From NCBI GenBank assembly GCA_043808785.1, contig JAZDEL010000006.1, positions 41,264 through 105,263 of the forward strand: 64,000 bases of DNA. Direction: 5' to 3'. A program made the position numbers and the translations under genes. The first letter of the stretch is position 1, and each line of letters starts with the position of its first letter. The notes below the pieces were generated by a model, which was not told the origin of the DNA, searched no databases, and was given only the letters and a program-made list of their open reading frames with translations. The DNA comes from Candidatus Iainarchaeum sp. Lineage in GTDB: Archaea; Iainarchaeota; Iainarchaeia; Iainarchaeales; JAZDEL01. This document shows, piece after piece, positions 11,083-49,220 of the stretch.

Positions 11083-12708
11083 TTAGCGGAATTCGTTCAG
11101 GCGCTTAATTACCCTGTCTTGCCCTAACGCAAAAATAAGCGTGCCTATCCTCGGGCCGCGCTCTTTTGCGAGGAGCGCGAGGTAGAGGGATTTGAAAAGT
11201 TCGCTTTGCTGGGTGTTATTTGATTTTGCAAGGGCGAAGAGTTCCGCGAGGAGTGCGTCCGCCGATTTGCTTTTGCGCACGAGTTCCACAACCTGCGGGA
11301 ACAAAGATGCTGCAGCGGGGGAAATCGCATTTTTCGCATCTACGGGAAGTTTTTCAGCGAACGCCAGTTTCGAATCCGCGGGTGCGTATTTCTCGGACCA
11401 TGCGCGCGCGTTGCGCAGGCGCCCGAGGAGCGCTGCCTTTTCCTGCGCGGGGATTTTTTTAGGGAGGCTTCCCGAATCCTGCAGTTTTGCAATGAGTTCG
11501 GCATCGGATGAGAAAAGCTGCGAGAGGGAGGTGGCGAGGGAATAATCCAAAAGCGCTTCGCCAAGTTCCCTGCCGTGAACCCTAGAATAAGTGAAAAATT
11601 TTTTTGATTCCGGATTAGCCCCAACGGACGCAATAACCCTGTCCAGCTCGAGTTCAAGGTTGGGCACGTCCTGCCACGAGAAGCTGCGGGCTTTTGTTAT
11701 GCGCTTTATGAACAAATATTTAAGGGCTTCGGGCCTCGCCACCTCAAGCCAGTCTTTGGGGTAAATTACGTTGCCGAGGGAAGCGCTCATCTTTTTTCCG
11801 TCAACCATCAAATGCTCGTAAAAAATCGGCTCCGGTGCGGGAAAATTAAGGACGCGCTCGCAGATTTCCGCGTTTATCCAGAAGGCGGAATTCCTTGATT
11901 CGTACTCCTTGCCCGCGCCCTCGGAACAAACGCCCCAGCGCTTCCACTGCGCAGCCCACTCGCTTTTCCATACCAACTTGCCGTTGGCTTTTTTTAAATC
12001 CGCGGTGCCTTCATGCCCGCAGCCCTTTGCTGTTTCGGTTTCAAACTTGTAATCGCCGCAAACGTAATTAACCTTCGAATCCTCGACCGAGGTTATTTTT
12101 GTGGTTTGTATTTTGCCGCACTTTTCGCAGACCTGCTGCCAGGGGAACCAGTTCGCGCCGAGGTGCGTGCCTTCTTCCTTGAATTTGTTTATTATTTCGC
12201 GCACTGTCGATGTGCCTTTCAGAACCTGCATTACTTCCTCATTGAAATTGCCTTTCTTGTACTCTTCCCGCATCGAGAAGCGCTTTGGTTCGGAGTCGAG
12301 GAACTGCTTCATTGTTTCAAAAAATATTTCTGCGTGGTGCTGTGCGTAGCTTTTGTGGCAGCCCTCGGGGTCGGGGATGTCCGAGACGGGCATGCCTATG
12401 CATTCGCGGAATTTTTCGGGAACGCCTGCGGGGATTTTCCTCAATGGGTCCATGTCCTCGGTTACGTAAATGAAGCCCGTTGGGAAGCCCCGCGATTTCA
12501 GGGCCTTGTAAACCGCCTCGCTGCGGATTATGTCCGAGAGGCGGCCTATATGGAGAACGCCCGAAAGGGAGGAACTTGACTTGACGTTCCATTTTTTCAG
12601 TTTCGGCGCGCTTGCATGGGAAAAACTGCCCTTTTCGCGCCGTGCAATTTTTTCCGCAATCTGCTCCGCCCAGAAAATGGCTTCCTTGCCGTCAGTTGAC
12701 TGCCGCAT
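11083..12708 (-). CDS. lysK: lysine--tRNA ligase, class I (archaeal type)
   Basis: Class I LysRS-like sequence including HIGRLSD. Start set to the internal Met (ATG at 12708), because the upstream part of ORF 11083..13479 overlaps the antiporter gene on the other strand. Confidence 0.85.
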   Translation of the reverse strand: MRQSTDGKEAIFWAEQIAEKIARREKGSFSHASAPKLKKWNVKSSSSLSGVLHIGRLSDIIRSEAVYKALKSRGFPTGFIYVTEDMDPLRKIPAGVPEKFRECIGMPVSDIPDPEGCHKSYAQHHAEIFFETMKQFLDSEPKRFSMREEYKKGNFNEEVMQVLKGTSTVREIINKFKEEGTHLGANWFPWQQVCEKCGKIQTTKITSVEDSKVNYVCGDYKFETETAKGCGHEGTADLKKANGKLVWKSEWAAQWKRWGVCSEGAGKEYESRNSAFWINAEICERVLNFPAPEPIFYEHLMVDGKKMSASLGNVIYPKDWLEVARPEALKYLFIKRITKARSFSWQDVPNLELELDRVIASVGANPESKKFFTYSRVHGRELGEALLDYSLATSLSQLFSSDAELIAKLQDSGSLPKKIPAQEKAALLGRLRNARAWSEKYAPADSKLAFAEKLPVDAKNAISPAAASLFPQVVELVRKSKSADALLAELFALAKSNNTQQSELFKSLYLALLAKERGPRIGTLIFALGQDRVIKRLNEFR

Positions 12709-12856
12709 GCAGAACCACAGATAGGATAGGGGGAATGAAATAGTTAAACTTAATGTTCCGGCACCCGCGGGGAGTACTGAAAAAACACAAAAAACAAACC
12801 GCGGTTGGCGGGAAAAAGCATTAAATAACACGTGGGGCATTAGAGTTACGGTTAAG

Positions 12857-14029
12857 ATGGAACTGTTTCTCGTTCTCGGCGCGCTGTTCCTGCTGACGTT
12901 CCTTATCGGGCAGGTTGTGGAGAAAATAAGGGTGCCGTGGATTTTCGCCGCGCTGCTCATAGGCACCGTGCTTGCCGCGTATAACCCGGTCGGGGACGTG
13001 ACCTCGTCCGAGCCGTTTATTTTCCTGGCGCAAATGGGGATGTATTTCCTTCTTTTCGTGATAGGGTTTGAGATAGACCTTGCGGAGTTCAGGAAGGCGG
13101 GTGCGTTCATACTGAAGAGCACGTTTTTCATAATCCTGCTTGAGGCGGTGTTCGGCAGCCTGCTTATCCACTTCGTTTTCGGGTATGATTGGGCGATATC
13201 GGCAATAGTTGCGCTGTCCTTCGCCACGGTTGGGGAAGCCATACTCATCCCGATACTTGACGAGTTCGGCATCGTTAACACGAGGCTCGGGCAGAGCATA
13301 ATAGGGATAGGGACGCTCGACGACATAATAGAGGTTGCGATGCTTATCGTGGTAATAATGCTCGTTGGCTCGCAGGGCGCGGCGCAGGCAAGCGCGGGGG
13401 TTACGCTTGTTTCGCTCTTCGTGCTTTCCGCGCTTGCCGTGGTGCTGATGAGGCTGGGCAAGTCGGGCAGGAAGTTCATGTTTCACGGCATCGAGATGCT
13501 TTTCCTGTTCGTGCTTTTCGTGCTTTTCCTTTTCCTCGGGGTCGGGGAGTATGCGAACGCGGGGCCTATAGCCGCGCTCCTTGCGGGGATTTCGCTTAAG
13601 GCGTTTGTGCCGAAGGAGAGGCTGCAGGCGATAGAGTCCGAGGTAAAGACGATGTGCTACGGCTTCTTTGCGCCGGTGTTTTTCCTCTGGGTCGGGCTTT
13701 CGCTCGACATAGGGTATCTGCTTGCGTTTCCGCTGCTTGTGCTTGCGGTAGTGGTTGTTTCAAACAGCGCGAAGATTCTGGGCAGCTACATAATGGCGAG
13801 GAAGGAGCTTGGCACAAGGCAGTCGATTCTGCTCGGCATCGGGCTGTCAGTGAGGTTCAGCACGAGCATAATCATAGTAAAGATTCTTCTTGACAACGGG
13901 CTTATAGGCGCGGAGTTGTATTCGGTAATTGTCGCGTCAAGCATAGTGTTCAAGTTTGTCGTGCCCGTGCTGTTCTCAAACCTGCTCGTGAAGTGGGGCG
14001 TTTCGAAGGGCTCAACCGTAGCGGGGTAA
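12857..14029 (+). CDS. cation:proton antiporter (CPA2 / Kef-type Na+(K+)/H+ exchanger family)
   Basis: About 11-12 TM helices with Na_H_exchanger-like motifs. 390 aa. Confidence 0.7.
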   Translation: MELFLVLGALFLLTFLIGQVVEKIRVPWIFAALLIGTVLAAYNPVGDVTSSEPFIFLAQMGMYFLLFVIGFEIDLAEFRKAGAFILKSTFFIILLEAVFGSLLIHFVFGYDWAISAIVALSFATVGEAILIPILDEFGIVNTRLGQSIIGIGTLDDIIEVAMLIVVIMLVGSQGAAQASAGVTLVSLFVLSALAVVLMRLGKSGRKFMFHGIEMLFLFVLFVLFLFLGVGEYANAGPIAALLAGISLKAFVPKERLQAIESEVKTMCYGFFAPVFFLWVGLSLDIGYLLAFPLLVLAVVVVSNSAKILGSYIMARKELGTRQSILLGIGLSVRFSTSIIIVKILLDNGLIGAELYSVIVASSIVFKFVVPVLFSNLLVKWGVSKGSTVAG

Positions 14030-14042
14030 AAAAATAAGAAAG

Positions 14043-14184
14043 TGGGAAGAGCGGGATTTGAACCCGCGACACCACGGTTTCTGCTCCTTTCGCAAAACCT
14101 GGAATCTTCAGCTGCACATGGGCAGAGCGTGGAAAACTCCCCTCAACGCCCATCGTGTGCTCTCCCAGGCTGAGCTACCTTCCC
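14043..14184 (-). tRNA. tRNA-Phe(GAA)-like gene, 142 nt, probably with two introns
   Basis: 5' half GGGAAGGTAGCTCAGCCTGGGAGAGCACACG and 3' half CCGTGGTGTCGCGGGTTCAAATCCCGCTCTTCCCA are 68 nt apart. Removing a 41-nt segment after position 30 and a 27-nt segment after position 38 leaves G+CTGAAGA as the anticodon loop and a 74-nt cloverleaf. The anticodon assignment is an inference. Confidence 0.6.
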
Positions 14185-14207
14185 ACTCCAAGAATTGGGG
14201 GCTTTAT

Positions 14208-14218
14208 TGTTTAAAAAG
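14208..14218 (-). promoter_or_regulatory. TATA-like box (TTTTTAAA on minus strand) about 26-33 nt upstream of the tRNA 5' end
   Basis: A/T hexamer in GC-rich surroundings at the expected archaeal spacing. Confidence 0.4.
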
Positions 14219-14222
14219 GATT

Positions 14223-14858
14223 CTATTCCGTCGCAGCCATGGCCCGCGCTAGTTTATAGGGGTTTGAAAAGCCGATTTCGGAAATCCATTTTCGCAGGTT
14301 TGCCTTCCCGTTTAGTGGAACCTTATATGCGGTTCGGACTGATGTTTTTGATTTGTAAGCCCAAATTTTTGCAACATTGAATCCGGCAACGCTTAATAGT
14401 TCCTTCAACTGTTCCGCAAGAGCGCGGCTCGTAGTGGTTATCTCAATAGAAGGGTATTTCGGCGAGCCCGGTTTGTCGGCCACGAAAACGGAGCCGTCCG
14501 TGTCCACGATGCCCCGGATTGCGTGCTTTGCCGACTCCCAATCGGCTTCGATTTCGGCGGGAATTTTGGCCTTAGCGCACTTGCCTTCATGGAAAGGCAA
14601 CCTGAATGTAGTCGTCAGGCGTTCCACGATCGGCTTAGAGTCAAATTTAATTCTGACCGCACGTTCCCTGAATTTAGGCTTAACCACCCGCCCCCATGCG
14701 GAATAAATTAGGCGGCTCAGATTTTCAAAATACTGCGCATCGGTTATTGGATTTCCCGTAAAGCCGATTATGTATTTCCTGTTGCGTTTGTAAATGTGCC
14801 CGTCCCCGAGGTAGGCGCCGATTAGTTCGCATTCTTCGGGAGAAATAGTTTCAGCCAT
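14223..14858 (-). CDS. LAGLIDADG homing endonuclease, double-motif, free-standing
   Basis: Two LAGLIDADG motifs, LIGAYLGDGHI and IRGIVDTDGSV. 211 aa, between two intron-containing tRNA genes. Confidence 0.8.
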   Translation of the reverse strand: MAETISPEECELIGAYLGDGHIYKRNRKYIIGFTGNPITDAQYFENLSRLIYSAWGRVVKPKFRERAVRIKFDSKPIVERLTTTFRLPFHEGKCAKAKIPAEIEADWESAKHAIRGIVDTDGSVFVADKPGSPKYPSIEITTTSRALAEQLKELLSVAGFNVAKIWAYKSKTSVRTAYKVPLNGKANLRKWISEIGFSNPYKLARAMAATE

Positions 14859-14960
14859 ATTATATAAAAGGGTTTGCGCAATTTAAAGGCTCGCAGAGAG
14901 TGCATTTCCGCTGCGGTTTTTGCCTTAAGCGGTTTCCGGTGCGAAGTGTGCCGGCCCAGT

Positions 14961-15072
14961 AATTTTAAAACGAGCCCGAGGGGATTTGAACCCCCGACAC
15001 CTTGGTTAAAAGCCAAGTGCTTTTGGCGGAAGGGGGCATGGAAACCCGCCCGACTTCCTCTACCAGACTGAG
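14961..15072 (-). tRNA. tRNA-Lys(UUU), 112 nt, with a 38-nt intron in the D-stem (non-canonical position)
   Basis: GGGCCCGTAGCTCAGTCTGGTAGAG | 38 nt | CACTTGG-CTTTTAA-CCAAG-GTGTC-GGGGGTTCAAATCCCCT-CGGGCTC-G. Excising GAAGTC...CAAAAG restores the GAGC D-stem and a 74-nt cloverleaf. Confidence 0.8.
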
Positions 15073-15097
15073 CTACGGGCCCGTCACAAAGAACGGG

Positions 15098-15107
15098 TTA
15101 GGAAAGG
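15098..15107 (-). promoter_or_regulatory. TATA-like box (ATTTAAAT) about 27-34 nt upstream of tRNA-Lys(UUU)
   Basis: A/T hexamer at the expected archaeal spacing. Confidence 0.4.
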
Positions 15108-15387
15108 AATTTAAATGTGTGCGGGCGGGAAAAACAAACAAAAAAAACGCGTCCGTGGTTTGGCGGGTTTGGTTGGTTTTGCCGGGTTTGCCGGGTCGTG
15201 GCGGGAAACAAACCAAAAACCGCGCAGGAGCGCGGTTGGTTTTGTTGGGCTTGCGGGGTTTGCTGTGCCGGCAAACCAGCAGGCAAACCATCGGGCATGC
15301 GTGCCCGCGGGGATTTTTCGAGTTCATTTCCGCAATGCGAAAGAAACATTTATATAATGCGTTATATATCAACTATATGTTGATTAT

Positions 15388-15615
15388 ATGGCTAGCGTCA
15401 CAACAATCCAGATAGGAAGGAATGTGCTGGAAGAACTGAAGAAAACAAAGCAGTACCCTAGGCAGACCTATTCCGAGATAATCCTGGAGATGGCAAAGGC
15501 ATACAGAAGCGGCAAATTGAAGAACCAGTACGACGAGTTCCTGCACAAGATACAGCAGGAAAAAATGAAGGAACTCTGGGGCAATAAAGAGGACGAGGCG
15601 TGGGAAAATGCCTGA
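15388..15615 (+). CDS. putative antitoxin (small DNA-binding protein) of a type II toxin-antitoxin pair
   Basis: 75-aa ORF whose stop overlaps the start of the MazF/PemK-like gene by 8 nt. Confidence 0.45.
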   Translation: MASVTTIQIGRNVLEELKKTKQYPRQTYSEIILEMAKAYRSGKLKNQYDEFLHKIQQEKMKELWGNKEDEAWENA

Positions 15616-15925
15616 GCAGGGGGATGTCGTGCTTGCGGCAATCCAGTTTGCCGACACTTTCGAGATAAAAAAGAGGCCTGCTGTAGTGCTTTTTTCCGAG
15701 TTCGGGAATGTGGTTGTTGCGGGAATTACGAGCAATACGGGGATGCAGGGCATAGCGCTTACGAAAAAGGACGGGGCGATAAAGGACAGCGTGATAAAGC
15801 CGAACTATATTTTCACTATATCGGAGAAGGCTGTGGAGAAGCGGCTTTTTTCCCTTGGCGCCGCGAAAAGGCTGGAACTATATTCCGCGCTGGAGAAAAG
15901 GCTCGGCGGGCTGAAGGGGCGCTGA
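15608..15925 (+). CDS. MazF/PemK-family toxin (mRNA interferase)
   Basis: GDVVLAAIQFADTFEIKKRPAVVL...GITSN pattern typical of PemK/MazF. 105 aa. Confidence 0.6.
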   Translation: MPEQGDVVLAAIQFADTFEIKKRPAVVLFSEFGNVVVAGITSNTGMQGIALTKKDGAIKDSVIKPNYIFTISEKAVEKRLFSLGAAKRLELYSALEKRLGGLKGR

Positions 15926-15951
15926 AAATTGCTGGCGCCCGCAATTGCGGC

Positions 15952-16794
15952 TTATTTTGCGAGCGGTATTTTCACGATGAAAACCGTGCCGCTCGGCTTG
16001 TTGTCGATTATGTTATCCCTTATTTCAAGCGCGCCGTTGTGAATCTTCAGGGCGTGCATTATTGACACCTGGCCGAGGCCGTGTTGCTGCGCAGGATCAA
16101 ATTCTTTCGTGGTAAAGCCCTTTGCCTCGAGGAAACTTTTTTTGCCCCTGTCGGAAAGGATTTTGCCCGTGTTGGAAACAGTTATTATGAAATTTTTCGA
16201 ATCCGTACACAAATCCATATGCAGCCTCCCTTCTTCGTCAACGGCACGAAGCGCATTCTGACAAAGGTTAAAGACGACGCTCCTGAGCCAGCCAGAATTT
16301 GCATTCAAAGCGGCAGGCATTACATACATGCTGGCTGTGAATTTGGGTTTGTCCCCCGTTAAACGGCTATATTCGGCCAATATTGAGGGGTACTCGGCAA
16401 GTTCCTTCGCAAGAACCTGCGCGGATATTCTCCGTAGGGGGCCTTTGCCTCTCGAGGCAATGCCCTTTGAAAACTCAAGTTCCCGCAGTACATAATTTAT
16501 GTAGCGGTCTGCTTTTTCCATATTGGGCGTGGTGCTGGCAAGTTCACACCGTGCACGCTCCACAGCCAACTCGGAAACCAACACGAAGTGGCCTAAGTCG
16601 TGGTGCAGGGTGGTTTGTTCGGCAGAACTAGCGGGTTTAATTAGGCCGCAAAGTTTCTTCAAACCCTCCATGTTTTGTTCAAGAAGAGCCAGCTTGTGTT
16701 CAACCGCCTCTTTTGTCGGCGCGGGGAATGTTGTGCGTGCAACCAGTTCCCGAACACGCAGCCTGCGCCCTTTCGGCGGATAAGGTTTCGGCAT
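15952..16794 (-). CDS. sensor histidine kinase, cytoplasmic (HisKA + HATPase_c)
   Basis: H-box HHDLGHF, N-box NLCQNALRA, G-box GLGQ. No TM segments. Confidence 0.7.
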   Translation of the reverse strand: MPKPYPPKGRRLRVRELVARTTFPAPTKEAVEHKLALLEQNMEGLKKLCGLIKPASSAEQTTLHHDLGHFVLVSELAVERARCELASTTPNMEKADRYINYVLRELEFSKGIASRGKGPLRRISAQVLAKELAEYPSILAEYSRLTGDKPKFTASMYVMPAALNANSGWLRSVVFNLCQNALRAVDEEGRLHMDLCTDSKNFIITVSNTGKILSDRGKKSFLEAKGFTTKEFDPAQQHGLGQVSIMHALKIHNGALEIRDNIIDNKPSGTVFIVKIPLAK

Positions 16795-16868
16795 CTATAA
16801 AAACCCTAAATAAAATAGTGCAAGGTAGCATATAAGGTTATGTTGCCGTGCGCGAAAAATAAAAAAAA

Positions 16869-17004
16869 CGAGCCCGAGGGGATTTGAACCCCCGACACCC
16901 TGGTTGCCCCAGAATGGAAATTAAGAGCCTCACCCACGCACAAGGAAACCGCAAGCGGAAACTTGAAACATGACAGGTGCTCTACCAGACTGAGCTACGG
17001 GCCC
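16869..17004 (-). tRNA. tRNA-Lys(CUU)-like gene, 136 nt, probably with two introns
   Basis: Acceptor, D and T arms are identical to tRNA-Lys(UUU). Removing 45 nt after position 30 and 17 nt after position 38 leaves G+CTCTTAA as the loop between CCTGG/CCAGG stems, giving 74 nt. The anticodon assignment is an inference. Confidence 0.55.
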
Positions 17005-17036: not shown

Positions 17037-17046
17037 TATTTAAAGG
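17037..17046 (-). promoter_or_regulatory. TATA-like box (CTTTAAATA) upstream of tRNA-Lys(CUU)
   Basis: A/T box 33-42 nt from the tRNA 5' end. Confidence 0.35.
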
Positions 17047-17124
17047 TTGCGCGGGGGGAAGGGGGGAGAAAAAACACAACAAAACAAACCCCGGCGCGCC
17101 GTGGTTTTTGTTTGGTTTGTGGGG

Positions 17125-20315: not shown

Positions 20316-20402
20316 AGCGGGGTAGGGCAGCCTGGAGTGCCCGTCGGGCTCATATTCCATGGGGAAACCCGAAGGTCGAAGGTTCAAATCCTTCCCCCGC
20401 TA
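20316..20402 (+). tRNA. initiator tRNA-Met(CAU) with a canonical 12-nt intron (37/38)
   Basis: AGCGGGG...CCCCGCT-A with an A1:U72 pair, GGG/CCC at the base of the anticodon stem, CTCATA|TTCCATGGGGAA|A loop, and T-arm GAAGGTTCAAATCCTTC. Confidence 0.85.
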
Positions 20403-24006: not shown

Positions 24007-25083
24007 TTACAGCGAATCCAGCGGGCTTTTGACCTTCTTCAGTTCATCCGTCGAAACCTGCGTATAAATCTGCGTTGTGTTCAGGTTGCTGTGCCCTAAA
24101 AGCTCCTGGATTTTCCTTATGTTTTCCCCTGCCTCGAGGAGGTGCGTTGCGAAGGAGTGCCGCAGCGTGTGCGGCGTTACGTGCCTCTTTATTTCCGCTT
24201 TTTCCGCGGCTTCGCGGATTATCCTCTGCATTGTGTCTGAGGAGAGCTGCTTGCCGTTCTTCTTTGAAAAGAGGAACTCGCTCTGCACCTTTTTCTTTTT
24301 GAGGTATTTTTTTATGCCCGAAGTCCAGTCTTTTGAAAGTATAACGACGCGGTCCTTGTTTCCTTTGCCCCCTTTTACGCGCGCAATGCCCTCGTGCAGG
24401 TCTGCGTCCGCGGTGCGCATTTTTACGAGTTCGCTTACGCGCAGGCCTGAGGAGTAAAGGAGCTCTACCATCAGCCTGTTCCTGCCGTGCTTTGTTGCCT
24501 TGATCAGCGCCCTTACCTCGTCCTGTGAAAGCACTGTTGGCAGTTTTTTCGCCTTTTTCGGGGATTTTATCTCATCGAGGATTTTCAGGCGCAGGAAGTT
24601 GTGGAAGAAGAATTTAAGGGCGGCGTGAACAAGCGCAAGGGTCGCGTTCGTGGAGTTTCTCTCTGATTTCATGTGTGCAAGGAATGCCACAACATCCTCG
24701 CGCGCGCAGGACTGTGCCGGCTTGCTGCTGTGCTCGAGAAAGGCCTTTGCGTACATGGAGTACATTTCAAGCGTGCGCTTGCTGTAGCCTGTAACCGTTA
24801 ATTCCTGCTGGAAGCGCCTGAGGAGTTCGGCGTTCTCAGGGAGCAGAACTTTCGCTGTAGGTGATATTGGGGTTGGGTGTGCTGCGGGAGAAGTGGCACT
24901 AACCGCGGCTGCTGGTGTTCTGGCGCCTTCTAACCCCGCTACGCCTCCTTCCTCTTTTGCGGCATAATCATTTGCCATGCTACCATATTGGTTGAAGTCG
25001 TTAATATTCGTTTCCGCACCGTGCGTAACTCGGCAGAGCGCACTGCAATTAGGGCAAACACAAACCTTTTTTAATTTTCCCAA
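24007..25083 (-). CDS. tyrosine recombinase/integrase, XerA/XerC-like, with an N-terminal extension
   Basis: C-terminal catalytic region with R...HxxR...Y (RHSFATHLLEAGENIRKIQELLGHSNLNTTQIYTQV). The N-terminal extension carries CxxC...C. Confidence 0.85.
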   Translation of the reverse strand: MGKLKKVCVCPNCSALCRVTHGAETNINDFNQYGSMANDYAAKEEGGVAGLEGARTPAAAVSATSPAAHPTPISPTAKVLLPENAELLRRFQQELTVTGYSKRTLEMYSMYAKAFLEHSSKPAQSCAREDVVAFLAHMKSERNSTNATLALVHAALKFFFHNFLRLKILDEIKSPKKAKKLPTVLSQDEVRALIKATKHGRNRLMVELLYSSGLRVSELVKMRTADADLHEGIARVKGGKGNKDRVVILSKDWTSGIKKYLKKKKVQSEFLFSKKNGKQLSSDTMQRIIREAAEKAEIKRHVTPHTLRHSFATHLLEAGENIRKIQELLGHSNLNTTQIYTQVSTDELKKVKSPLDSL

Positions 25084-35883: not shown

Positions 35884-36507
35884 ATGATATCTGACGAATA
35901 CATAATGGGCTTTGTCGAGGGCGAGGGCTGCTTCAGCATAACGCTGCAGCGTTACTTTGACCGCAAGCCCAGGGCAACTGGCCGCAGGAACAACCGCAAG
36001 CACAAGGCGTTTCCGATACGGTTGGCTCCAAGCTTCAGGATTACGATAAGGGAGAAAGACAGGCGCGTGCTTGATGAGATTAAGGAAAAGTTCGGTTTTG
36101 GCTCCATTTATTTGCAAAGGAGACAGGGGGAAAATTGCCAGGATACTTGCCAATATGTTGTAGAAACCTTTGGGGATTTGTTTGTTCTGGTGGATTTCTT
36201 CTCAATGCAGACTTTTTACACTCAGAAAGGTGAGGATTTCAGAAAATGGGCCCAGGCTCTCGAGATTTTCAAATCCGGCGGGCATTTAACAAAGGAGGGC
36301 GCGCTGGAGATTTGTAGGCTCAGGGACTGCATGAACCTACGGATGAACAAAGGCAACCGTGTTTCCGAAGAGGTTAAGGCTCTCCTCGAGGAGAAACGCG
36401 AGCACATTCTGGCGCATGCAGACAAAAATCAGAGTAAACTTCTACATAATTGTGATGGGGCACTGCCCAAATCGCCGTTCCCTTTGACGCAGCAACCCAC
36501 ACCCTAA
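35884..36507 (+). CDS. LAGLIDADG-family homing endonuclease, free-standing
   Basis: YIMGFVEGEGCFSI motif (LAGLIDADG_3-like). Locally AT-richer than the surroundings. Confidence 0.65.
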   Translation: MISDEYIMGFVEGEGCFSITLQRYFDRKPRATGRRNNRKHKAFPIRLAPSFRITIREKDRRVLDEIKEKFGFGSIYLQRRQGENCQDTCQYVVETFGDLFVLVDFFSMQTFYTQKGEDFRKWAQALEIFKSGGHLTKEGALEICRLRDCMNLRMNKGNRVSEEVKALLEEKREHILAHADKNQSKLLHNCDGALPKSPFPLTQQPTP

Positions 36508-46355: not shown

Positions 46356-46778
46356 TTACTTCACGACCCTGAACTTGTAGCCGTAGGCAATCGCCCCTTC
46401 TTTCCTCTGCTCGGAAATCTTCCTGAAAACCTTCTCCACATGTGCGCCTATCCTTACCTTTTCATTTTCGCTGTCCACGACCTGGCTTAACAGCCTCGCG
46501 CCGTTCTCAAGTTCTATTATCGCAAGGAAATAAGGCGTTTCGTGGTCGAACCCCGTGGGTCCTGTCATTACCTCCGTGTATGAAATAACCTTCCCCTTCC
46601 TCGGCATCTGCTTTGCTGAAAGCTTCCCGCGCCTCCTGCAGTTCGGGCAAACTCCCCTTGCCGGGAAGAAATCCTCGCCGCATGTGCTGCACGAATTGCC
46701 GGCAAGCGTGTAGCGCTCGGGGAACTTCCTCCAGATTAACGGCAGTGCTTCGCTCATTTCATGCACCCCCCGCAACAC
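46356..46778 (-). CDS. DUF35 OB-fold/zinc-ribbon protein (scaffold of the archaeal thiolase-HMGCS complex)
   Basis: CSTCG...CPNC zinc ribbon plus OB fold. Confidence 0.75.
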   Translation of the reverse strand: MLRGVHEMSEALPLIWRKFPERYTLAGNSCSTCGEDFFPARGVCPNCRRRGKLSAKQMPRKGKVISYTEVMTGPTGFDHETPYFLAIIELENGARLLSQVVDSENEKVRIGAHVEKVFRKISEQRKEGAIAYGYKFRVVK

Positions 46779-48045
46779 AATATGCGAATTTATTTCCCGT
46801 TAATTTCCTCTCGACAAGCCCCTCTTCAGACATCCGCAATAGAACATCGCGCACATGCCTTCCCGACCTTTTGCACGCCTTTGAAATGCCCGAAGCGGTT
46901 GCGAGAACGCCCTGCGCATTAAGATTTGTGATTGCTTTAATATAGTTCTCCGAAGCCTCGTGGCGCGGGAAAGACTCGAGCCCGTCAACATACCTGCCAA
47001 GAACATGCACGAGTTTGTTTTCCTTCCGTTCCAGGCCGAAACCGACCTTCTCGAGATATTTCCGCAGGTTCTCCCTACCGCTTATTATAAGTGTCCAATT
47101 GAGCGTAACTTCCCCGCTGCTTTTGAAATTGCGCCCCCTGACGACTATTTTTGATTTAATGCCCATGACTTCCAATGACTGCTGAACATCCGACAGCAAC
47201 TGCGGCTTTTTTGCGGCAGTTTCTTCCGCAGCGGTTGTGGGGCATATCAGAGTAATCACCCTGCAGTGATAATTATCCACAACACAGCCGTCATCGTCAA
47301 ACAGCCGTCTCAGGAGGGCTATAAGCGGCTTTCTATCGCCCGCCGCAATGAACTGCCTGGGAATTCCTAATTCGTAATTATAATTTTTGTTGCCGTCAGG
47401 AATCCCGATAGTGCCGAGGATTACGCCGATTATTTTGGGGAAAATTACGCAGGGCACGCCGCTTGTCGACCTGTGGCGTGCAAACCTGACATCGCCAAAT
47501 GTGGAAACAACCGCACCCACAAAACTATCGACCTGCTGGCGCTCGTTGTTGAAGTACCAGACGCGCATCTTGCTTTTTTCTATCCCGCCGTCGCCCAAAA
47601 CTCCGCCAACAACAAGCCCGAATTCCTCGGTCAAAATTTCGAAAGGCAGCTTCGGGTTTTTTATTTTCTCTTTTGATTTCAGGGTTTTCAATTCAATTAC
47701 TTTCTTTTCTATCTTCCGCCCGTTAATGCCAAGTTCATCCGCAGCCCTGGCCAAAAACGAAAGCGGCATGCCGCTCCTTCCGACGGAATACCGCCTTGCG
47801 GATTCGCCCCTGCCGAGCCCGAAAGCCCTTGCGATTGCGGAAAACGAGCCGTGTTTCTTCAAGAGCGCCCCGAATAGTTCCTTCCTGAACTCGGCATCCA
47901 GCGTAACGCGAATTTTGCCCGCAGGCAAATCAAAAAGGGAAATGCTCGCCATTTCATCTTCACCAGCAATAAATATGTTTTTTATCCCCTTAAATAGTTT
48001 CGGGAGAGTGCATTTCCGGTGCGAAACAGAAATTTCCGTATTCAT
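46759..48045 (-). CDS. LAGLIDADG-family protein (double-motif) with N-terminal HTH-like and C-terminal winged-helix-like extensions
   Basis: LVVGGVLGDGGI and LIALLRRLFDDDGCV motifs. Its ATG overlaps the thiolase TGA (ATGA at 48045-48042), and its stop overlaps the DUF35 start by 20 nt. Confidence 0.7.
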   Translation of the reverse strand: MNTEISVSHRKCTLPKLFKGIKNIFIAGEDEMASISLFDLPAGKIRVTLDAEFRKELFGALLKKHGSFSAIARAFGLGRGESARRYSVGRSGMPLSFLARAADELGINGRKIEKKVIELKTLKSKEKIKNPKLPFEILTEEFGLVVGGVLGDGGIEKSKMRVWYFNNERQQVDSFVGAVVSTFGDVRFARHRSTSGVPCVIFPKIIGVILGTIGIPDGNKNYNYELGIPRQFIAAGDRKPLIALLRRLFDDDGCVVDNYHCRVITLICPTTAAEETAAKKPQLLSDVQQSLEVMGIKSKIVVRGRNFKSSGEVTLNWTLIISGRENLRKYLEKVGFGLERKENKLVHVLGRYVDGLESFPRHEASENYIKAITNLNAQGVLATASGISKACKRSGRHVRDVLLRMSEEGLVERKLTGNKFAYCVAGGA

Positions 48046-49220
48046 CTTTTCCCCTCCAGTGCCTGCAAAATGTGAATCACGCATGTTGCCCCACTCCCCC
48101 CGATATTGTGCGTCAGCCCTATGTGCGCATTCTTAACCTGCCTCTTCCCCGTAACCCCCCTTACTTGCTCGCAAATCTCGATAGCCTGCTTAACGCCTGT
48201 TGCGCCGACAGGGTGCCCGCATTTAAGCCCGCCCGAGGTGTTAATCGGGATTTCACCTTTTAGTGCGGTTTTTCCGTCCTCGCTTGCTTTTCCCCCTTTG
48301 CCCTTTTTGAAGAACCCCAAATCCTCTATTGCAAGTATTTCCGCGATTGTAAAGCAGTCATGCACTTCCGCCAAATCAATATCCGAAATCTTAAGTCCCG
48401 ACTGCCTGAGCGCCTCCTGCACCGCAACCTTCGTCGCCCACAGTTCGGTAAGGCTCTTCCTGCTAGCAACGGCAAGAGTATCCGAAGCCTGCGCGCTCGC
48501 AATAATCTCGACAGGTTCCTCACACAGTTTTCTTGCCTTATCCGTCGCACACAGGATTGCCGCTGCTGCACCGTCGCTGATGGGCGAGCAATCCAGCAGT
48601 TTCAGGGGAGTTGCAACATACCCTGAATTCATCACATCCTCAATTGTAATTTCATTGTGGAATTGTGAGTGGGGGCTGTGCATGCCGTTCGCATGGTTCT
48701 TCACTGCAACAGCGGCCATCTGTTCCTCCGTTGTTTTGAACTCGTGCATATGCCTCCTTGCAAGCAGCGCATAGAGTGCGGGGAAAGTTGCGCCCTGGAA
48801 AAGCTCGGTTTCCTGGTCCCCCGCGCCCCCCAAAGCAAAGCCCGCTTCCTCGGTGCTTACCTCAGTCATCTTCTCCGCCCCGCCGACAGCAACAACATCA
48901 TACATTCCGGAAGCGATCGCGTGGTAAGCCGCCCTAAGGGCAACCCCGCCAGAAGCGCATGCAGCCTCAACACGCGTGCTCGGCGCGGGATTCAGCCCTA
49001 ACTGATCCGCAATAAGCGCCCCAATATGCTCCTGCCCTATGAACCTTCCAGAAGCCATGCATCCGCCGTAAACCGCCTCTATATCCGCCCCGCTTATGCA
49101 CGCGTCGCTTATCGCCATTATTCCCGCCTCGGCAATAAGCTCGCGGAACGACTTGCCCCAGTGCTCCCCGAATTTCGTTATGCCCGCGCCGATAACCGAA
49201 ACGCTCCTCATGCCGCGCAC
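48042..49220 (-). CDS. acetyl-CoA C-acetyltransferase (archaeal acetoacetyl-CoA thiolase)
   Basis: Thiolase Cys region CASGG, C-terminal NIGGSGATCV. Confidence 0.9.
   Translation of the reverse strand: MRGMRSVSVIGAGITKFGEHWGKSFRELIAEAGIMAISDACISGADIEAVYGGCMASGRFIGQEHIGALIADQLGLNPAPSTRVEAACASGGVALRAAYHAIASGMYDVVAVGGAEKMTEVSTEEAGFALGGAGDQETELFQGATFPALYALLARRHMHEFKTTEEQMAAVAVKNHANGMHSPHSQFHNEITIEDVMNSGYVATPLKLLDCSPISDGAAAAILCATDKARKLCEEPVEIIASAQASDTLAVASRKSLTELWATKVAVQEALRQSGLKISDIDLAEVHDCFTIAEILAIEDLGFFKKGKGGKASEDGKTALKGEIPINTSGGLKCGHPVGATGVKQAIEICEQVRGVTGKRQVKNAHIGLTHNIGGSGATCVIHILQALEGKR

Follow-up and report, generated by a model that had tools for sequence, protein, structure and literature searches.

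A window of 64,000 nt from Candidatus Iainarchaeum sp. (contig JAZDEL010000006.1), analysed here over its whole length, carries at 14043-17004 on the minus strand three interrupted tRNA genes of 142, 112 and 136 nt, each of which becomes a 74-nt cloverleaf after excision. We conclude, with a probability of about 0.9, that these genes (g1, g2 and g3) are functional, independently transcribed tRNA genes with protein-spliced bulge-helix-bulge (BHB) introns. Excision of 41 + 27, 38 and 45 + 17 nt leaves cloverleaves with the anticodons GAA, UUU and CUU, and the coordinates, strand and lengths given in a preliminary description of this DNA proved exact. The analysis establishes how the genes are built, the geometry of their splice motifs, the covariation and the conservation in relatives. 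The genes, together with a plus-strand initiator tRNA gene nearby, are as follows, with splice sites given as the tRNA positions they separate.

14043..14184, minus strand: g1, tRNA-Phe(GAA), 142 nt; exon 1 14184-14154; intron 1 14153-14113 (41 nt, 30/31); exon 2 14112-14106 (GCUGAAG, positions 31-37); intron 2 14105-14079 (27 nt, 37/38); exon 3 14078-14043
14971..15082, minus strand: g2, tRNA-Lys(UUU), 112 nt; exon 1 15082-15060; D-arm intron 15059-15022 (38 nt, 22/23); exon 2 15021-14971
16869..17004, minus strand: g3, tRNA-Lys(CUU), 136 nt; exon 1 17004-16974; intron 1 16973-16929 (45 nt, 30/31); exon 2 16928-16922 (GCUCUUA); intron 2 16921-16905 (17 nt, 37/38); exon 3 16904-16869
20316..20402, plus strand: initiator tRNA-Met(CAU), 87 nt, found by ARAGORN, Rfam 53.5 bits; canonical 37/38 intron of 12 nt at 20355-20366, TTCCATGGGGAA, as had been described

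Since a BHB scan over all position pairs was too noisy, we instead enumerated all one- and two-segment excisions leaving a 73-74-nt cloverleaf and ranked them by BHB geometry. This gave 153 valid decompositions for g1 and 156 for g3, none with a single intron; the best were 41 nt at 30/31 plus 27 nt at 37/38 in g1, and 45 nt at 30/31 plus 17 nt at 37/38 in g3. Both genes therefore hold two separate BHB introns within one contiguous gene, and the earlier claim of two introns each stands. Sixteen single-intron solutions exist for g2, the best of which removes one 38-nt intron with the cut at G22|A23. Written as base pairs of the central (H), outer (h) and inner (h') helices, the geometry is H4 h2 h'6 at 30/31 and H3 h5 h'3 at 37/38 in g1, H4 h4 h'5 and H4 h5 h'0 at the same sites in g3, and H3 h5 h'0 in the initiator gene, and a motif can be drawn at every junction. 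The preliminary description had rightly recognized the second introns of g1 and g3 and the length and non-canonical site of the g2 intron, but had cut them at 38/39 and at GAG|C. Because A or AG is repeated at both junctions, these cuts and those at 37/38 and 22/23 are the same deletion at the DNA level, and the register was therefore chosen by BHB geometry; for the second intron of g3, 37/38 scores H4 h5 and 38/39 H3 h0. Of the introns in g1 and g3 that had been called non-canonical, those at 30/31 keep that designation, while the second ones occupy the ordinary 37/38 site.

ARAGORN missed all three genes in the window. The Rfam tRNA model matches g1 (41.6 bits) and g3 (45.2 bits) end to end, with unaligned inserts of 77 and 71 nt in the anticodon arm, and matches g2 only partially (26.7 bits, under the 29-bit gathering score, also when searched alone), mis-pairing the D-stem with intron bases. 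We recovered g2 by a search anchored on the T-arm and acceptor stem, which finds exactly four tRNA genes in the window (g1, g2, g3 and the initiator gene), all four interrupted. As had been noted for the arms of the two Lys genes, the 25-nt 5' parts of g2 and g3 are identical and the 41-nt 3' parts 98% identical. By direct reading, a TATA-like box stands 25-40 nt upstream of each gene, which therefore has a promoter of its own: TTTTAAA at 14210..14216 (-) for g1, where the distance to the mature 5' end is 25-32 nt, with boxes at 15110-15115 for g2 and 17039-17044 for g3. The upstream regions of g1 and g3 are 73% identical over 30 nt. A T-run, TTTTTTTT at 16861..16868 (-), lies immediately 3' of the discriminator base of g3, and direct reading places others 3' of g2 (14967-14970) and g1 (~14028-14042). 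CCA is encoded in none of the three.

Four of the introns (g1 intron 1, the g2 intron and both introns of g3) have a central helix with 4/4 pairs and 3-nt bulges. When the introns were shuffled and chance was given the best of three registers, we obtained p values of 0.0006 and 0.012 for the introns of g1, 0.006 for g2, and 0.0004 and 0.013 for those of g3, the shuffled introns reaching the observed motif in 0.04-1.3% of trials per junction. The unconstrained minimum free energy fold of g2 is itself the full motif, with UGGU/GCCA as its helix, AG|A and AA|A as bulges, and GGAAG/CUUCC as inner helix. A strict Watson-Crick palindrome scan of the window found nothing.

The central helix of the 30/31 motif is formed by exon bases 25-28 and the intron's 3' end, which means that the intron has to track the exon. 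We examined 16 such junctions from the window, DPANN metagenome-assembled genomes (MAGs) and metagenome contigs, and found that their central pairs include CACA/UGUG, CACC/GGUG, CGCU/AGCG, CAGC/GCUG, CGGC/GCCG, CAUC/GAUG, CUUC/GGAG and CACU/GGUG. Over all 16 junctions 92.7% of cells are paired, compared with 67.3% after shuffling (0/500 shuffles reach 92.7%) and 33-49% with slid partners; the registers were picked partly by BHB score, which inflates the percentage paired, and the two controls correct this bias only partly, the slid one being the fairer comparison. The covariation score is 0.693 vs. 0.172, and double changes occur in 55 cells where 16 are expected. Pairing in the central helix reaches 98.4%, and double changes occur at 3/4 of its pairs and at 4/4 of those in the inner helix. 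The outer helix is exon-exon, A21-G24 (AGAG) pairing with C32-U35 (92% paired); it is perfect for tRNA-Lys (CUCU or CUUU) and has only 2 bp for Phe.

The preliminary description had seen in this architecture an affinity to Thermoproteales, Korarchaeota or Thaum/Aigarchaeota, which did not hold up: the LysRS encoded in the window is 100% identical to a protein of a 'Candidatus Diapherotrites archaeon' MAG, and all other relatives are DPANN. The gene order TFIIE, Trm56, SerRS, tRNA-Lys, ..., LysRS, KaiC is conserved. Close relatives, from separate ENA, JGI and Logan assemblies, were found through a LAGLIDADG gene that neighbours g1 and g2, and L144, L145 and L146 hold the same interrupted genes. 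Compared with g3, the tRNA-Lys(CUU) gene of L146 shows no change in intron 1 (45/45 positions identical) and one in intron 2 (16/17), while the exons differ at 4/74 nt; its tRNA-Lys(UUU) has the 22/23 intron, whose hairpin shape is kept through two compensatory double changes relative to g2. The tRNA-Phe genes of L144/L145 have both introns, intron 2 being 27/27 identical to that of g1, and their exon changes are two compensatory acceptor pairs. Their tRNA-Lys(UUU) carries a quite different intron of 44 nt at the same 22/23 site, where introns orthologous to that of g2 occur in L146, L144, L140 and L115. Judged by these alignments, the introns are conserved at least as well as the exons in close relatives.

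In farther relatives, intron content is patchy:

L138/L139: tRNA-Lys(CUU) 30/31 + 37/38; tRNA-Lys(UUU), tRNA-Phe and initiator tRNA intron-less
L001: tRNA-Lys(CUU) 30/31 only; tRNA-Lys(UUU) and tRNA-Phe intron-less; initiator tRNA 37/38
L140: tRNA-Lys(CUU) intron-less; tRNA-Lys(UUU) 22/23 + 37/38 + 42/43; tRNA-Phe not found; initiator tRNA 37/38
L143: tRNA-Lys(CUU) and tRNA-Lys(UUU) intron-less; tRNA-Phe and initiator tRNA not found
L147: tRNA-Lys(CUU) 30/31 + 37/38; tRNA-Lys(UUU) and initiator tRNA intron-less; tRNA-Phe not found
L149 (Micrarchaeota label): tRNA-Lys(CUU) 30/31 + 37/38; tRNA-Lys(UUU) 37/38; tRNA-Phe and initiator tRNA not found
L008 and L009 (Woesearchaeota): tRNA-Lys(CUU) 30/31 + 37/38; tRNA-Lys(UUU), tRNA-Phe and initiator tRNA not found

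The intron-less orthologues in L003, L140 and L143 show exactly the predicted mature anticodon arm. In L017, the nearest LysRS relative (88% identity), only 152 nt lie upstream, and no tRNA was found in them. An exact-match search with the LysRS of the window gave no contig. We also scanned metagenomes for the window's D-arm and T-arm spaced 64-94 nt apart. Among the matches listed, single 37/38 introns predominate, L115 has introns at 22/23 and 37/38, and at least a dozen genes carry the 30/31 + 37/38 pair with no single-intron solution; these are mostly Lys, with one Tyr and one (L109) that is probably Phe. The tRNA-Lys(CUU) intron at 30/31 occurs in MAGs labelled Diapherotrites, Woesearchaeota and Micrarchaeota, and the 30/31 + 37/38 layout of this tRNA is a widespread, inherited feature of DPANN. 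The same architecture does recur in two genes of the window, as had been pointed out, but to call this recurrence independent was too narrow. Two further observations come from the relatives. The 161-nt tRNA-Lys(UUU) gene of L140 (5893-6053) has three introns, each with a 4-bp central helix, and class II tRNA genes of 99-175 nt in the Woesearchaeota MAGs L007, L008, L009 and L011, Ser(GGA)-like by eye, appear to hold one to three introns.

On the basis of established archaeal tRNA biology, each precursor would be transcribed from its own TATA promoter and end at the T-run. The RNA around each intron would fold into a 4-bp helix between two 3-nt bulges, EndA would cleave each bulge behind its second base, leaving the exons to be joined by an RtcB-type ligase. 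RNase P and 3' trimming would finish the ends, and CCA would be added post-transcriptionally because it is not encoded. Bases 27-28 and 32-35 are claimed by both the full 30/31 motif and the full 37/38 motif, and because of this competition the introns are probably spliced in order, the one at 30/31 before the one at 37/38. In g3, the 30/31 motif has a modelled energy cost of +3.2 kcal/mol in the primary transcript, and the cost of the 37/38 motif goes from +9.7 kcal/mol before removal of intron 1 to +3.6 kcal/mol after it. Forced-structure energies are meaningless for g1 intron 2 and the initiator intron, where an A.G pair is enforced. Because several of the motifs are relaxed, a broad- or relaxed-specificity endonuclease in the host is plausible.

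Several points weigh against reading g1-g3 as functional, spliced genes. The central helix has 3/4 pairs, with one A.G, in g1 intron 2 and in the initiator intron; the outer helix of g2 is a single base pair, and an inner helix is lacking in g3 intron 2. The register selection behind the covariation percentages belongs here as well. We infer splicing, its order and the mature ends, and the argument for order consists of nearest-neighbour energies for naked RNA and one gene, g3. Pfam scans of the 64-kb window found neither EndA nor RtcB among its ~60 open reading frames (ORFs), and the check for intron-less copies of the three genes was confined to the same 64 kb.

It is possible, though we consider it doubtful, that the introns are themselves functionally selected or carry a signature of mobility, as their full-length conservation and a shared TTCCA motif might indicate, possibly by way of stable circular RNAs made from the introns or of pairing with the D-loop UGG. 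TTCCA is present in 5/6 introns of the four tRNA genes, and the sixth contains TTTCC twice:

14134-14130, minus strand: TTCCA
14104-14100, minus strand: TTCCA
15043-15039, minus strand: TTCCA
16919-16915, minus strand: TTCCA
20355-20359, plus strand: TTCCA

The motif lies just 3' of the 5' splice site in the canonical introns and in the apical loop of the g2 intron. No 5-mer was as widely shared in 5000 shuffles, and TTCCA occurs in 6/94 environmental introns. It is retained in the close relatives L144 and L146, and in the g2 intron its place in the loop is kept although the stem has covarying changes; the 45-nt intron 1 of g3 is identical in L146 even though the neighbouring LAGLIDADG protein there is only 72% identical. 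Against selection, the comparison covers one or two close relatives, TTCCA is missing from orthologous introns in L138, L140 and L144 Lys(UUU), and common descent through copying of introns would explain the motif without function. The initiator intron, TTCCATGGGGAA, resembles g3 intron 2, ATTTCCATTCTGGGGCA, and the two look homologous; g1 intron 2 resembles the initiator intron of L001 (ATTCCAG...AAGGAG). Together, the shared motif and these likenesses suggest that introns were copied between tRNA genes.

The LAGLIDADG gene lies downstream of g2, at a distance of 112 nt, and upstream of g1, at 38 nt. It and its homologues are located as follows.

14223..14858, minus strand: free-standing LAGLIDADG endonuclease gene of the window, 211 aa (Pfam LAGLIDADG_3, 3e-12)
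L140 6286-6918: homologue
L144 553-1188: homologue
L146 1469-2104: homologue
L147 6001-6639: homologue
L009 8975-9607: homologue
L023 481-1077: homologue
L149 3001-3648: homologue
L148 3001-3630: homologue

The window protein is 63% identical to that of the syntenic L140 gene. Its family is ~210 aa long throughout and 50-66% identical, with more than 200 DPANN clusters that mostly contain one sequence each, and all 32 sequences compared keep the catalytic residues D19 and D121. An AlphaFold2 (AF2) model (pLDDT 95.4) has a two-domain fold whose top matches are I-Tsp061I, PI-PfuI and I-DmoI; a sequence-level comparison with the PDB found no match. The gene is syntenic near SerRS, tRNA-Lys and LysRS in 7/8 lineages examined, and in 7/8 it lies ~20-440 nt from a tRNA-Lys or tRNA-Phe gene, most of those tRNAs being interrupted; in L140 the nearest tRNA is the intron-less Lys(CUU), and in L148 the gene sits beside RNase P RNA and 23S rRNA. 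Tested as a selfish element, the gene proved to be free-standing, of a single length, syntenic and conserved across DPANN at a housekeeping level, and the endonuclease looks domesticated rather than selfish. As an obligate partner of interrupted tRNAs we rejected it, because it is missing from many multi-intron loci whose flanks exceed 1 kb and because of its location in L148. We regard it as unlikely that the tRNA introns of this lineage move, or until recently moved, as DNA, with the TTCCA common to introns at 22/23, 30/31 and 37/38 in four tRNA genes marking copies of one intron lineage and the LAGLIDADG protein driving their insertion into tRNA genes, now or in the past, or acting as a maturase. 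If this were true, intron mobility through a LAGLIDADG enzyme would be a mechanism for archaeal tRNA-intron gain. The window holds two more LAGLIDADG ORFs, one at 35884-36507 (+; 207 aa, LAGLIDADG_1) and one at 46759-48084 (-; 441 aa, LAGLIDADG_3), the latter between DUF35/OB-fold and thiolase genes in a mevalonate-pathway cluster; both resemble the tRNA-linked gene in motif only, and no rRNA or intein context was seen around them.

On a very improbable account, g1-g3 would be tRNA pseudogenes in decay whose random insertions are never excised, with working copies elsewhere in the genome. The weak response of the standard finders (ARAGORN 0/3; Rfam 26.7 bits for g2) and the 64-kb limit on the search for intron-less copies would fit it. 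However, the exons form perfect 74-nt cloverleaves, the inserts bear BHB motifs with compensatory covariation, and the tRNA-Lys(CUU) gene of L146 differs from g3 at 1/62 positions in introns vs. 4/74 in exons. The exon changes are themselves compensatory in stems, and each gene keeps its TATA box and T-run. Archaea usually have one gene per anticodon, which also speaks against spare copies.

We find it highly improbable that the genes should be parsed differently, through a single long intron or with another anticodon. Other two-intron solutions do pass a loose cloverleaf filter, and in g3 a 30/31 + 33/34 solution with anticodon GGC scores 11.5 vs. 12.5. On the other hand, no single-intron cloverleaf exists for g1 or g3, and 30/31 + 37/38 ranks best in more than 15 independent genes. 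Further, g3 has the acceptor, D and T arms of tRNA-Lys(UUU) and the G73 discriminator of its relatives' tRNA-Lys, and the anticodon arms of the intron-less orthologues match exactly. That the inserts are assembly or binning artefacts is conceivable in that the source is a MAG, but near-identical interrupted genes in the same order in the separate assemblies L144, L145 and L146 leave this next to no probability.

Three other classes of element were considered and rejected. Split, trans-spliced tRNAs do not fit genes whose exons all lie together within 112-142 nt and which have a single TATA box and a single T-run each. Group I or II self-splicing introns do not fit introns of only 17-45 nt, and no Rfam intron match was found in the window at E<=1. 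Inspecting the introns of the window by eye, we found no paired boxes C and D, and the introns are too short for C/D-box guide RNAs.

Around the three genes the window holds several other features. A type II toxin-antitoxin-like module (15373-15951) lies between an HATPase gene and tRNA-Lys(UUU), with a MazF/PemK-like toxin ORF at 15608-15925 (+) and small adjoining ORFs; because this stretch of ~600 nt is missing from the otherwise collinear L146, it is probably a recent insertion. Similar hairpins at 15200-15258 and 17066-17124 (- strand) stand just upstream of the g2 and g3 promoters and downstream of the preceding genes; their 5' arm is A/C-rich, their core GC and their 3' arm G/U-rich, with a U-run after it, and L146 has a counterpart at 1180-1215. 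The g2-side hairpin folds at -20.7 kcal/mol (z = -3.35) and the g3-side hairpin no better than shuffles (z = -0.65). A role as terminator-like or insulator elements is possible. A 798-aa 'LysRS' ORF (11083-13479, -) was rejected as over-extended: the annotated protein takes up 11083-12708 and has 541 aa, and the 257 codons upstream of it overlap a Na+/H+ exchanger gene at 12857-14029 (+; PF00999, 1.6e-38). A tyrosine recombinase/integrase gene at 24007-25083 (-; Phage_integrase, 3e-48) lies ~3.6 kb from the initiator tRNA gene. Since the syntenic locus L140 also has a homologous integrase at its edge, the gene is probably of a conserved Xer type rather than the sign of an integrated element.

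Sugahara and colleagues reportedly described multiple and non-canonical tRNA introns in Crenarchaeota and Thermoproteales in 2007 and 2008, Randau and colleagues are said to have described a split tRNA-Lys(CUU) in Nanoarchaeum equitans in 2005, and Marck and Grosjean reportedly defined the canonical archaeal 37/38 intron in 2003. Sites 22/23 and 30/31 are already listed as archaeal tRNA intron positions (PMC4090602), and PMC4033280 lists multiple-intron tRNAs from Crenarchaeota, Nanoarchaeum, Korarchaeum and ARMAN. L3-loop alpha4 EndAs go with more tRNA gene disruption in several DPANN lineages (Kaneta et al. 2018, PMC5829648), ARMAN-1/2 have a broad-specificity epsilon2 EndA (Fujishima 2011, PMC3239211), and the tRNA-Lys(CUU) that is split in N. 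equitans and Staphylothermus is joined at 30/31 (Chan 2011, PMC3218864). With these positions, multi-intron tRNAs and DPANN tRNA disruption all published, the window is a further archaeal example. Our literature search found no paper describing Diapherotrites tRNA introns and no statement of a cis 30/31 tRNA-Lys(CUU) intron across Diapherotrites, Woesearchaeota and Micrarchaeota MAGs. The result adds Diapherotrites to the lineages with multi-intron tRNAs, an incremental step that does not overturn current understanding. DPANN tRNA sets are incompletely predicted (PMC5829648) and the 'missing tRNA' problem persists (bioRxiv 10.64898/2026.05.13.725050); genes like g2 feed it and can distort completeness estimates and codon-usage inferences.

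Like the genes of Crenarchaeota/Thermoproteales (PMC4033280, PMC4090602), with their one to three short BHB introns each, those of the window have non-canonical intron sites that include 22/23 and 30/31, often joined by one at 37/38, show hBHBh' or relaxed HBh'/BHL motifs, and give hints that different tRNAs share similar introns. Unlike them, they belong to a mesophilic-type DPANN (Diapherotrites) MAG of 53% GC rather than to a hyperthermophilic crenarchaeon, the endonuclease expected here is not of the (alpha-beta)2 CSL type, and the intron set is small and in large part inherited across DPANN rather than the product of a recent burst. Other disrupted DPANN tRNAs (PMC3239211, PMC5829648) share with g1-g3 the superphylum, multiple and non-canonical introns, relaxed BHB motifs and poor prediction by standard tools, although Diapherotrites lie outside those surveys. 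The second introns of g1 and g3 and the initiator intron resemble the canonical 37/38 intron in that the anticodon stem serves as outer helix and bases 32-35 enter the central helix; in g1 and g3, unlike the canonical case, the anticodon stem is split at 30/31, and the motif is complete only after the first splice. As for the neighbouring protein, I-Tsp061I and I-DmoI (PDB 2dch, 2vs7) are single-chain LAGLIDADG homing endonucleases of archaeal rRNA introns. The 211-aa protein has the two-domain fold of I-Tsp061I (TM 0.72/0.74 to 2dch) and both catalytic aspartates, but its gene is free-standing, with no surrounding intron or intein.

The tRNA-Lys(CUU) that is split in N. equitans, itself a DPANN archaeon, and in Staphylothermus is the same tRNA, joined at the same 30/31 junction through a canonical hBHBh' motif. 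Unlike the split genes, g3 has contiguous parts, separated by a cis intron of 45 nt, and a second intron at 37/38. Since tRNA-Lys exons furnish half of the 30/31 motif, through AGAG (21-24) and CUCU/CUUU (32-35), the exon-supplied outer helix offers a simple structural reason for the 30/31 hot spot and would explain why tRNA-Lys is its preferred host, repeatedly interrupted or split there. As a cis-spliced counterpart to the split tRNA-Lys(CUU), g3 bears on the debate about which arose earlier, introns or split genes.

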